DNA from: an uncultured Nitrosopumilaceae archaeon
GTDB lineage: Archaea > Thermoproteota > Nitrososphaeria > Nitrososphaerales > Nitrosopumilaceae
DNA length: 32,000 nucleotides
Direction of reading: 5' to 3'
Assembly (NCBI GenBank): GCA_964475825.1
Contig: CAYYXT010000002.1
Location: 75,177-107,176, forward strand
Both the position numbers and the translations under genes were made by a program. The notes under the pieces are model-generated. The model had not been told where the DNA came from, made no database searches, and saw only the letters and a list, made by a program, of their open reading frames with translations. Positions within the stretch are counted from its first letter, which is position 1; each line of letters starts with the position of its first letter. Shown in pieces: positions 1 through 14,318 of the stretch.

Positions 1-687
1 GTTATAGGATTTCACATTCTAGTAAATACTTCAAAAGATTCGGATGCACTAATCTATAGTTTTTCAATGATTATTCCAGGATGTGTGTCTATTTTTGCCT
101 TCATTACTGCAAGAAGATATGCTGGAACTTTGGTATATTCAAGAGCATACAACATGCTAGGAATCGCATTTTTGTTGATGTTTTTTGCAGAATTTACTTA
201 TTTTGTATATGAACAAATTTTAGAGTTGGAACCATATCCATCAATCGCAGATTTATTCTTTTTTGTGTTTTATCCAATGTTAATTCTTTATTTAATAATC
301 CATATCCGATTCTTTGCTCCACAAATCACAAAAATTGGAATAGCCACGATAGTGGGAACTCCGTTAATTATAACCCTTACATATCTTTACTTGACAATAT
401 CCGATGTTGGGAGTTTTGATTTCTATTATGGAATAATTTTTGTTGCTGCGGCGTCAACTACTTTAGGTCTTTCGATCCACACGGCCAGAATTTTTAAGGG
501 TGGGTTAATCGGAACAGCATGGTTAGTTCTAGTTATAGGAATTATGTTGAATGTTGTTGGAGATACTTGGTATTACTATATTGAAGTAAATGAAGGATAC
601 ACTTTAGAAGATCCAGTTAATCTTTTTTGGTATTCATCATACTTGCTTATTCTTTATTCATTATACAAACATAAAAAATCACTTTAA
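1..687 (+). CDS. Polytopic membrane protein, 5'-truncated by the window edge
   Basis: Frame 1 is open from nt 1 to the TAA at 685-687, so the listed ATG at 67 need not be the start. The product is a series of hydrophobic helices (GIAFLLMFFAEFTYFVY, LFFFVFYPMLILYLIIHI, WLVLVIGIMLNVVG). No catalytic motif recognised. Confidence 0.5.
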   Translation, partial: VIGFHILVNTSKDSDALIYSFSMIIPGCVSIFAFITARRYAGTLVYSRAYNMLGIAFLLMFFAEFTYFVYEQILELEPYPSIADLFFFVFYPMLILYLIIHIRFFAPQITKIGIATIVGTPLIITLTYLYLTISDVGSFDFYYGIIFVAAASTTLGLSIHTARIFKGGLIGTAWLVLVIGIMLNVVGDTWYYYIEVNEGYTLEDPVNLFWYSSYLLILYSLYKHKKSL

Positions 688-912: not shown

Positions 913-1356
913 ATGCTAAATAAGAAAATAGAAAAACGTAACATCTCGAAGATTAACCGTTTTGGCTTATTTGCCAAAGAAATAATTTTCAAAGATGAAA
1001 TAATTTGGGTTCCTACAGACGATGCAATGAAGGTAATTCCTATAACTGATCTAGAAAAATTATCAACGGATGAACAACAAGACTGGATAAATCATTGCTA
1101 TCAAATGGGTGATCGTTATTACATGGATATTGATGATACACGATTAATGAATCACAGTTGTGAACCAAATACATTAGATTTTCCTAATGATAATCCAACA
1201 ATAATCATTGCTGCAAGAGACATTGAAAAAGACGAAGAAATAACTTGGAATTATCTGCCATTCATGAATCCATTTCAAGTCTTTCAGTGTAATTGTGGAA
1301 GTAGGAATTGCGTAGATATTGTTAAAAAGAATGCAGTTGTAAAACATAATTCTTGA
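913..1356 (+). CDS. SET-domain protein (lysine) methyltransferase with post-SET Cys cluster
   Basis: Contains the SET signature RLMNHSCEPNT, the EEITWNY motif, an N-terminal GLFAKE-type strand, and a C-terminal CNCGSRNC post-SET-like cluster. Total 147 aa. Confidence 0.8.
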   Translation: MLNKKIEKRNISKINRFGLFAKEIIFKDEIIWVPTDDAMKVIPITDLEKLSTDEQQDWINHCYQMGDRYYMDIDDTRLMNHSCEPNTLDFPNDNPTIIIAARDIEKDEEITWNYLPFMNPFQVFQCNCGSRNCVDIVKKNAVVKHNS

Positions 1357-1554: not shown

Positions 1555-1568
1555 GATATTTTTAAAAA
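1555..1568 (+). promoter_or_regulatory. Candidate TATA/BRE element for the 1590 gene
   Basis: gatatttttaaaaa is centred about 29 nt upstream of the ATG at 1590. This spacing recurs at other genes here and suggests leaderless or short-leader transcripts. Confidence 0.35.
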
Positions 1569-1589: not shown

Positions 1590-2087
1590 ATGGGAATCGA
1601 ATTACTTGATGAAACTAATGTCCGTTCTCTTTCTCCTGATGAGCGATTTTTAGTATGTGAACAAATATTGAAAAATGAAAAAGATGAATCAAAACGTTGG
1701 GATGCTGTATGGTTGATAGGTGAATTAGCAGAAAAAAAAGCTCAAAATGATCCAATGTTTAAAAAAGTATCTGATGTTCTTGAATGGGTTTTAAATAATG
1801 ATGATAATGGAGTAGTAAAACACGAAGCATGTTTTCAAATCGCTGCAAGAAACATGCGAAATAAAATTCCTGTTTTAGTAAATACTGCACTACACAACAA
1901 AAGTATATTGGCAAAACATGAAGCGATTGAATCTCTTGGACTAATGCGTGCATTTGAAGCAGAATCACTAATTCAGAAAGCCCTGGATGATTCTAGTTCT
2001 GATGTAAGAGAAACTGCGGCATTTGTTCTCAAGAGATTTGATCGGCTAAAAAATCATGGTGATTATAATCCCTCTGAGATTTTATAG
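1590..2087 (+). CDS. HEAT-repeat protein resembling one half of deoxyhypusine hydroxylase (two His-Glu motifs)
   Basis: Has HEAT-like helical pairs. Two HE dyads (VVKHEACFQIAARN and LAKHEAIESLGLM) are separated by 30 residues, with IPVLV between them. They are followed by SSSDVRETAAFVLKRF. The protein is 165 aa, about half the length of eukaryotic DOHH. Confidence 0.7.
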   Translation: MGIELLDETNVRSLSPDERFLVCEQILKNEKDESKRWDAVWLIGELAEKKAQNDPMFKKVSDVLEWVLNNDDNGVVKHEACFQIAARNMRNKIPVLVNTALHNKSILAKHEAIESLGLMRAFEAESLIQKALDDSSSDVRETAAFVLKRFDRLKNHGDYNPSEIL

Positions 2088-2191: not shown

Positions 2192-2626
2192 CTAATTAGT
2201 TTTTCTGATGTAGTTTTTTACATCTAATGTTGTTAGTGGTTGGGCTGTCTCCCATAGCAGACTACAAAGGCTATGTATGTTACTTACCATCTCAGATGAA
2301 TTTGTACACAAAGAAAAATCTGATTCTGAATTTGTAGACATTTGACTTGCAGCTACCGAGTCTGACATTATCATTTGTTTGTCCTTTTGAACTACCATTC
2401 TTCCTTTTGATGGAATCTTACAAATTTTAGTCTCAGATGCATTAAACCTTTTTACAAATGGAATTAGTTTTGGATCATCTAGTTCTACAAGTAACCTGAC
2501 TTTACCCCCTTTCTTTTCACAAATCATGATCTTTTCAGGTATTGCACTATGATACATTCTAGATACATCTTCAAGTGTTGTTGAAATGTATACTGTATCT
2601 GATGAATTTTCTCCCCAACTGGTCAA
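2192..2626 (-). CDS. Hypothetical protein (start uncertain)
   Basis: 144-codon ORF. The only start in the open frame is TTG at 2626, because an upstream in-frame TAA lies 15 codons before it. The Ser/Thr-rich C-terminal half has no recognisable motif. No competing ORF of 60 aa or more exists on the + strand. Confidence 0.4.
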   Translation of the reverse strand: MTSWGENSSDTVYISTTLEDVSRMYHSAIPEKIMICEKKGGKVRLLVELDDPKLIPFVKRFNASETKICKIPSKGRMVVQKDKQMIMSDSVAASQMSTNSESDFSLCTNSSEMVSNIHSLCSLLWETAQPLTTLDVKNYIRKTN

Positions 2627-13436: not shown

Positions 13437-14318
13437 ATGAGTTTTCTAGATTTATACATGAACAGAAATCCTATGATCACCGCTTCTTGTGGTGATTCTG
13501 AGCCTGTGGCAACTGTCTTTGGAATTCCGTTTGATTCTACACACTCTTACAAGCCTGGATGCAGATTCGGACCTGATGTTATTCGTGACGCATTTAACAA
13601 TATTGAGATATTTCACCCCCAATTTGGCATTGATCTGGAAACTGTAAACATTGAAGATTTAGGAAATACAACTCATACAGTTTTGGCAAGTGAGATGATT
13701 GACATGGTTGGCAAAATCACAAAAGAACTAGTTGCAAAGAAAAGACAACTGTTCATTTTAGGTGGTGAGCACTCTATCACATATGGTACATACATGAGTT
13801 TTCCAAAAGAAACTGGTTATGTTGTATTTGATGCTCATTATGATTTGCGTGATGAATATGCAAACGTCAAACTAAGTCATGCCGCCTACCTTAGAAGAAT
13901 TGTAGAAAAAAGAGGTACAGATAATATCTTACATGTTGGTGCACGAGCATTTGTAAAAGAAGAGCTAGAATTTCTAAAAGAACACAACATCAAAACAATC
14001 TCTGACAGACAAGTGCGAGAAGGAAAAGGTCCCCAACTTCTAAAGGAATTTACATCTTCCTTTGATTCTATGTATGCTAGTTTTGATCTTGATGTCTTGG
14101 ATCCTGCATATGCACCAGGTGTTGGAAATCCTGAAGCTGCAGGTATGACATCTCGCGAACTCTTTGATTTGATTTATTCACTTGAAAACAAAAAAGTAAC
14201 AGGTGTTGATATTGTGGAACTAAATCCTCAATATGATAACGGAGCTACTGCATCAATTGCAGCAAAGATAATGTCTACCTTAATTGCTATGAATTTGGCT
14301 CGATTAAACTATCAATGA
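13437..14318 (+). CDS. speB: Agmatinase (ureohydrolase family)
   Basis: Mn-binding motifs GGEHSITYG, DAHYDLRD and SFDLDVLDPAYAPGVGNPEAAGMT are present. The gene starts 2 nt after the thrS stop. Confidence 0.9.
   Translation: MSFLDLYMNRNPMITASCGDSEPVATVFGIPFDSTHSYKPGCRFGPDVIRDAFNNIEIFHPQFGIDLETVNIEDLGNTTHTVLASEMIDMVGKITKELVAKKRQLFILGGEHSITYGTYMSFPKETGYVVFDAHYDLRDEYANVKLSHAAYLRRIVEKRGTDNILHVGARAFVKEELEFLKEHNIKTISDRQVREGKGPQLLKEFTSSFDSMYASFDLDVLDPAYAPGVGNPEAAGMTSRELFDLIYSLENKKVTGVDIVELNPQYDNGATASIAAKIMSTLIAMNLARLNYQ

Follow-up and report, generated by a model that had tools for sequence, protein, structure and literature searches.

A candidate half-size member of the deoxyhypusine hydroxylase superfamily and its membrane-protein gene neighbour in Nitrososphaeria

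Results

A short HEAT-repeat protein carries two invariant His-Glu dyads

The window, that is, the whole stretch of DNA analysed here, comprises 32,000 nucleotides from an uncultured Nitrosopumilaceae archaeon. At 1590..2087 on the forward strand it contains a listed ORF with an ATG start (hereafter the HEAT gene), encoding a 165-aa protein with four HEAT repeats and two His-Glu dyads, which we place in a family termed A. Two further forward-strand genes lie upstream. The 3' part of a membrane-protein gene, designated Mem, occupies 1..687, where it is cut by the window start (the tblastn alignment begins at nt 1), and a gene for a SET-domain protein of the protein-lysine methyltransferase type (Pfam SET, 6.3e-14) lies at 913..1356, between Mem and the HEAT gene.

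An earlier note on this DNA had described a 165-aa HEAT protein with two His-Glu dyads 30 residues apart and IPVLV between them. The sequence that it quoted is the translation of ORF 1590..2087, and both the ORF and its sequence agree with the description. Dyad 1, H78-E79 in VVKHEACFQIAARN, is encoded at 1821..1826 (+). Dyad 2, H110-E111 in LAKHEAIESLGLM, is encoded at nt 1917-1922; together with E114, which is invariant in the alignments and completes an HEAxE motif, it spans 1917..1931 (+). The dyads are located on repeats 2 and 3 of the four-repeat unit and are separated by 30 residues (His-to-His spacing, 32), with IPVLV at residues 93-97. Downstream of both dyads is SSSDVRETAAFVLKRF, and SSSDVRETAAFVLKRFDRLKNHG covers residues 135-157 of the 165-aa protein. 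Repeat 4 contains E141-T142 (2010..2015, +), 31 residues past H110.

Reading the upstream sequence with the general geometry of archaeal promoters in mind, we found a TATA-like A/T-rich element, ATATTTTTAAAAA, at 1556..1568 (+), centred about 28 nt upstream of the ATG. This position suggests that the HEAT gene may be transcribed from a promoter of its own, into an mRNA with a short leader or none. Together with an oligo-T run past the stop codon, the element suggests a separate transcription unit.

Searching a large protein database yielded 910 homologues from Nitrosarchaeum, Nitrosopumilus and their relatives, all of which are named 'HEAT repeat' or 'PBS lyase'. Conservation of the dyads among orthologues had been proposed as a check, and both dyads were kept in 120 of 120 close relatives and in 25 of 25 distant family members. 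In a family alignment extending down to 34% identity, only seven columns were invariant: R19, R36, H78, E79, H110, E111 and E114. The number of homologues and the invariance of the dyads indicate that the dyads of the window protein are not a matter of chance.

Pfam assigned only generic HEAT families to the protein (HEAT_2, HEAT_EZ and HEAT_PBS). HEAT_2 (PF13646) passed its gathering threshold (44.6 bits against a cut-off of 27.7; 1.8e-11), and HEAT_PBS stayed under its cut-off. The NCBIfam equivalogs for phycobilin lyases and NblB scored 12.8-19.4 bits against cut-offs of 300-600, far from membership. PBS-lyase-type HEAT proteins (CpcE/F, NblB, alphaRep) share the repeat type and the HEAT_2/HEAT_PBS match with family A, but lack His-Glu dyads. 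Consistent with the earlier statement that generic HEAT repeats are free of such dyads, the best-matching segment contained no HE at all in 32 of 34 long generic HEAT proteins.

The dyads are in register with those of eukaryotic deoxyhypusine hydroxylase

Among solved structures, human deoxyhypusine hydroxylase (DOHH; 4d4z) was the top match to the single sequence (E 4.5e-8). The two dyads aligned to H56-E57/H89-E90 and, more weakly, to H207-E208/H240-E241, in register with both halves of the enzyme, which bears out the previously noticed likeness to one DOHH half. A profile search for a DOHH signal, also proposed earlier, was run with 27 orthologues of family A; it returned DOHH at 2e-10, and the next match, a designed alphaRep, at 9e-4. 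In these alignments dyad 1 corresponds to H56-E57 and H207-E208, and dyad 2 with E114 to H89-E90(-E93) and H240-E241(-E244).

Family A has in common with DOHH (human 4D4Z/4D50; yeast Lia1) the HEAT fold, the location of the dyads on repeats 2 and 3 of a four-repeat unit, a similar dyad spacing (32 residues, against 33 in DOHH) and, at dyad 2, an HEAxExLG motif. Position +4 of dyad 2 is Glu in 100% of family A, of a second archaeal family termed C (see below) and of eukaryotic halves; in a third, family B, this Glu is not conserved. An E-T/S pair in the fourth repeat, 31 residues past the second His, is likewise common to family A and eukaryotic DOHH: by positional profile and alignment, E141-T142 is in the register of the E-T/E-S of DOHH repeats 4 and 8 (VAETC/VRESC).

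The differences are also clear. DOHH has eight repeats in a chain of about 300 aa, whereas the window protein is a single four-repeat unit of 165 aa with about 20% identity, and within family A eight repeats occur only in a fusion relative, P0121. Each chain of the window protein carries two dyads, which are invariant and in the right register; four would come together only in a dimer, as suggested by that fusion. Repeat 1 contains a highly conserved DESKRWDAVW in family A, but RFRALFTLRN in DOHH. Substrate-binding residues of DOHH are E57/E208, E90/E241 and Gly63(65)/Gly214 (PMC9117371). The Glu residues of this set are present in the window protein (E79 and E111), but the Gly position is occupied by Ala85, which is invariant in the clade of the window protein; Gly is found there in about 60% of distant family members.

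The match to DOHH had been judged far better than that to generic HEAT repeats. This holds insofar as DOHH is the best solved structure, but not for per-domain scores: with the family A profile, eukaryotic DOHH halves gave 18-35 bits and the best generic HEAT segments from 1.84 billion proteins gave 10-31 bits, so that the two ranges overlap. One long protein, P0214, reached 35.5 bits, but is itself a four-dyad protein. Because of this overlap, the argument for homology to DOHH is based on signature positions and architecture, not on bulk similarity. In our preferred reading, the 165-aa protein is one subunit of a DOHH-superfamily protein.

Archaea contain several families of half-size His-Glu-dyad proteins

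We searched 1.84 billion representative proteins with the family A profile. For GTDB genomes we used a degenerate DNA pattern covering two dyads, which had been checked on known loci and gave at least 119 loci. For a metagenome scan, a broad family alignment (A3) was too diverse; the narrower alignment A4 was used and gave 79 family A loci. The profile search and the GTDB scan also recovered eukaryote-type DOHHs.

Among the loci listed, family A occurred only in Nitrososphaeria (Nitrosopumilaceae, Nitrosotenuis and Nitrososphaeraceae). It is divided into the sub-branches A1 (the window type) and A2 and a more diverged group. Two metagenome contigs each carry two family A copies, 47-86 kb apart and each with about 70% identity to the window protein (L152/L160 on CXWL01004846.1 and L153/L161 on CXWL01001152.1), indicating that paralogues exist within one Nitrosopumilaceae genome.

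Family B (about 162 aa) accounted for 102 of the 119 GTDB loci listed (within L009-L127). Its hosts include Nitrosopumilus (L072), Nitrosarchaeum (L083), Nitrosotalea (L017), Nitrososphaera, Nitrosocosmicus and Cenarchaeum, and also some non-AOA MAGs; at least one MAG, DATFCH01, has both families (L041 is A and L103 is B). Family B resembles family A in size, dyad spacing and hosts, and in having a tandem-fusion form (P0155). With the family A profile it scored about 50-56 bits, on par with the half-size group T5b, placing it among the closest outside relatives of family A. Its motif, VRHEAAFxLGQ...VRHEAAxALG, has Gly and Gln as in DOHH, but not the Glu at +4 of dyad 2. Family B is also far closer than family A to the generic HEAT consensus, and alphaRep heads its list of PDB matches. 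Its neighbours are Rad50/Mre11/HerA and a thioredoxin-like gene.

Family C consists of half-size proteins of 144-194 aa (P0414-P0533; loci L016, L020, L046, L081, L088, L105 and L106) from Thermoplasmatota, 'Euryarchaeota' and 'Halobacteriales' MAGs; the typical length in our survey was about 154-170 aa. Like family A, these archaeal proteins have two dyads with a spacing of 32. By contrast with family A, they are about 55% identical to the C-terminal half of human DOHH and share its ERFRAIFxLRN motif. The match of family C to human DOHH (1.4e-66) extends across both halves and takes in the inter-half linker SVDPAPPA; the corresponding value for the window protein was 4.5e-8. Some family C proteins carry the JGI label 'deoxyhypusine monooxygenase'.

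Mean pairwise bit scores order these families. Against eukaryotic halves, family A scored 36-41, family B 56-57 and family C 84-95; A scored 51 against B and only 39 against C, and B scored 67 against C. Family A is thus the most diverged His-Glu-dyad branch by this measure, and is not the closest relative of DOHH in its genome or domain. As far as these comparisons can tell, family A is not a DOHH orthologue, and it is plausible that family C represents the true (split) DOHH. Since DOHH has closer relatives in families B and C, the earlier suggestion that the window protein is an ancestral pre-duplication form of DOHH is unlikely for the family A branch.

Tandem fusions re-create the two-lobed layout

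The earlier note had proposed that a homodimer could rebuild the four-dyad site of DOHH. A natural counterpart is P0121 (316 aa), in which two diverged A units are fused in tandem to give four dyads; it was found on four independent contigs (A-A fusion entries P0121/P0271-P0273; L001). P0155 (363 aa) is a B-B fusion with a signal-peptide-like N-terminus. The A-A and B-B fusions have each arrived independently at the eight-repeat layout of DOHH.

We modelled P0121 with AF2 from an alignment of 59 sequences that placed its four dyads on those of four-dyad proteins. The model had a pLDDT of 90.9 and a pTM of 0.90 (pLDDT 62 for single-sequence AF2); the alignment contained eukaryotic DOHH, which may have steered it. 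In a Foldseek search of the PDB, human DOHH was the only global match to this model (TM 0.68/0.73, rmsd 4.0 Å, 311 columns). All others had TMq of at most 0.38 and TMt of at most 0.50, and the matches to alphaRep and other HEAT solenoids all had an rmsd above 12 Å. The predicted structure of the A-A fusion therefore has the two-lobed DOHH architecture (TM 0.68/0.73 to 4d4z). A natural A-A fusion with a DOHH-like model supports the homodimer idea, and we consider that the window protein probably works as a homodimer, with the dimer geometry taken from this 54% identical fusion homologue.

Family A genes mostly lie beside a membrane-protein gene

Mem is a protein of about 253-255 aa with 7-8 TM or hydrophobic segments, of which a full-length copy is encoded at L002:1337-2098. 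Its conserved residues are P103, P105, S106, D109, W199, D213, Y216, Y217 and W235. Searches of Pfam, NCBIfam and the PDB gave no match. NCBI names its relatives 'histidine kinase', but no kinase domain is present.

A Mem gene was found within 1.5 kb of the family A gene in 26 of 34 well-flanked loci and in 58 of the 79 metagenome A loci overall; no other neighbour of family A was as constant. A median of 99 nt separates the two genes, which stand in several orientations to each other. Mem was not nearby in about a quarter of the well-flanked A loci, and it was near family B genes in none of 102 loci. On one Nitrososphaerales-type contig, the paralogues A1 and A2 each lie beside their own Mem paralogue, an arrangement unlike that of a housekeeping enzyme with a single substrate. 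As Mem belongs to no recognisable family, the nature of its partnership with family A is a guess.

Other neighbours are less regular. SET genes adjoin family A in the window, at L006-8, L032 and L062 and on the fusion's contig, in four different arrangements. They are adjacent in 9 of the 79 metagenome A loci, and in about 10-15% of loci across Nitrosopumilaceae and Nitrososphaerales. We considered a SET-HEAT operon as a general rule and rejected it on the basis of the 9 of 79 count and of the HEAT gene's own TATA-like element. FkbM-type Methyltransf_21 genes lie beside A2 in four loci from different lineages (L006:6285-7175, L011:3933-4769, L019:6625-7461 and L031:2076-2909). On the contig of the P0273 fusion, HEAT146, Methyltransf_21, SET and FMN_red genes stand in a row.

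TrmB-type regulators and a response-regulator gene are found near family A in several loci. In relatives, a TrmB-like regulator of about 281 aa adjoins A genes; in the window, the ORF at 2192..2626 (-) matches only residues 144-280 of it and, lacking the N-terminal wHTH half, looks like a truncated remnant.

No DHS or aIF5A gene was found in the window, and neither was present in the recurrent neighbour clusters or among the Pfam-annotated neighbours of families A and B. The agmatinase gene at 13437..14318 (+), which had been pointed out as a possible polyamine supply, is genuine (Arginase family, 1.9e-74), but 11 kb separate it from the HEAT gene, to which it shows no linkage. We rejected a link between agmatinase or polyamines and family A, given this distance and the lack of recurrent adjacency. 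Elsewhere, a pyruvoyl arginine decarboxylase gene (L129:7267-7818) lies 2.8 kb from an A gene.

Discussion

To our knowledge, DOHH is the only characterised enzyme in which a HEAT-repeat scaffold carries a di-iron site that activates O2. By analogy, two copies of the window protein would associate with their concave faces together, and the four dyads, with the invariant E114, could build a His/carboxylate dinuclear iron site like that of DOHH. Such a site would serve as an O2-activating centre for oxygenase chemistry, acting on Mem itself or on a target that Mem supplies; less likely, the protein would be an O2- or iron-sensing subunit of Mem. Family A appears to be inherited together with Mem and, in part of its lineages, also with a methyltransferase of the SET or FkbM type. 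Because this branch is Nitrososphaeria-specific, forms paralogues and is co-inherited with Mem, we favour a target tied to Mem over a dedicated role in aIF5A hydroxylation. We hold this reading, a two-copy DOHH-superfamily di-iron oxygenase with a Mem-associated target, with about even confidence.

The earlier note had offered another function, in which the homodimer, as a split or pre-duplication DOHH, would be the aIF5A deoxyhypusine hydroxylase of ammonia-oxidising archaea. It had also stated that no DOHH is assigned in archaea, and published work agrees (PMC5178350, PMC6105217, PMC8153317; literature searched to 2021). DOHH is not discussed in a 2026 review, and a literature search for DOHH with Thaumarchaeota, Asgard or Nitrosopumilus found no paper. 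This vacancy speaks for an aIF5A hydroxylase, as do the DOHH-like dyads, their spacing and the repeat-4 E-T, the +4 Glu of dyad 2 that eukaryotic DOHH shares with families A and C but not B, and the DOHH-like model predicted for the fusion. Hypusine has been reported in Crenarchaeota (PMC5178350). The hosts of family A are aerobic, which also suits a hydroxylase. Crenarchaeota with hypusine include anaerobes, however, so an O2-dependent enzyme of nitrifiers cannot be the general archaeal solution, and family A is confined to Nitrososphaeria among the loci listed. Family A further departs from DOHH in its Ala at the Gly63/Gly214 position, its paralogous copies (two per contig in some genomes) and its tight linkage to a membrane-protein gene, with DHS and aIF5A outside its recurrent or Pfam-annotated neighbours. 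Given, in addition, that B and C stand nearer to DOHH than A does, we regard aIF5A hydroxylation by family A as improbable.

Somewhat less doubtful, although still rather unlikely, is a non-catalytic role in which the HEAT unit would serve Mem as an adaptor or sensor in the cytoplasm, with the dyads binding metal or O2/NO as a signal, as in hemerythrin-type sensors. The Mem partnership, the name 'histidine kinase' given to Mem relatives and the regulator genes (TrmB-type and response-regulator) near several loci would fit such a role, but Mem has neither a kinase domain nor a family match, the FMN_red and methyltransferase neighbours are better suited to enzymology, and the sole characterised HEAT protein with such dyads is an oxygenase. 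The active unit might instead be an A-B heterodimer encoded in one genome, which would resemble DOHH with its two unlike halves (N- and C-terminal): A and B each hold a different subset of the DOHH signature positions and share lineages and, in one case, a MAG (DATFCH01, with L041 and L103). Yet the fusions seen are A-A and B-B, with no A-B among the 150 representatives listed; the 102 B loci contain no A-family gene, the sole cross-matches being the B genes themselves; and B is found in lineages without A among the loci listed. We therefore consider heterodimers very unlikely. The same low probability applies to an ordinary HEAT/PBS-lyase-type scaffold with incidental His-Glu pairs. The Pfam matches (HEAT_2, HEAT_EZ and HEAT_PBS alone) and the database names favour this assignment, but the dyads stay fully invariant in a family whose members otherwise diverge to 34% identity, generic HEAT segments are devoid of HE, and the lyase and NblB models of NCBIfam fall far under their cut-offs. 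The host organism, as far as we know, has no phycobilisomes.

Returning to the Mem-associated oxygenase, we tentatively suggest, with a confidence well below even, that family A represents an undescribed membrane-coupled branch of the DOHH superfamily, composed of homodimeric or tandem-fused di-iron HEAT oxygenases that would act on Mem or signal through it, with SET/FkbM methyltransferases and a flavin reductase as accessory proteins in some lineages. If this is true, one possibility is a cycle of oxidative modification or demethylation on a membrane protein or lipid of ammonia-oxidising archaea. The window gene would then exemplify an apparently distinct use of the DOHH-type metal-binding scaffold, tied to Mem, in globally abundant nitrifiers.

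Our analysis shows that archaea hold at least three half-size His-Glu-dyad families, along with natural tandem fusions. As candidates for archaeal aIF5A hydroxylation, these offer B and A in ammonia oxidisers and C in Thermoplasmatota, and half-size families bear on the origin of the eight-repeat eukaryotic DOHH.

Our searches also returned His-Glu-dyad proteins of other layouts. Short four-dyad proteins of 244-284 aa have second dyads of the FVVHE type (P0162, P0170 from L004, P0175, P0179 and P0199); the L004 contig, with a GC content of 30%, also contains an Arf/Roc/RagA-type GTPase gene. Some of the short four-dyad proteins are from Woesearchaeota; of the related loci in that group, L044 has a four-dyad ORF that is truncated, and L026 and L052 encode half-size proteins with two dyads. 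In P0161, P0167, P0181, P0188, P0231 and P0232, the first dyad is His-Asp (IIRHDAAF) and the second is still His-Glu.
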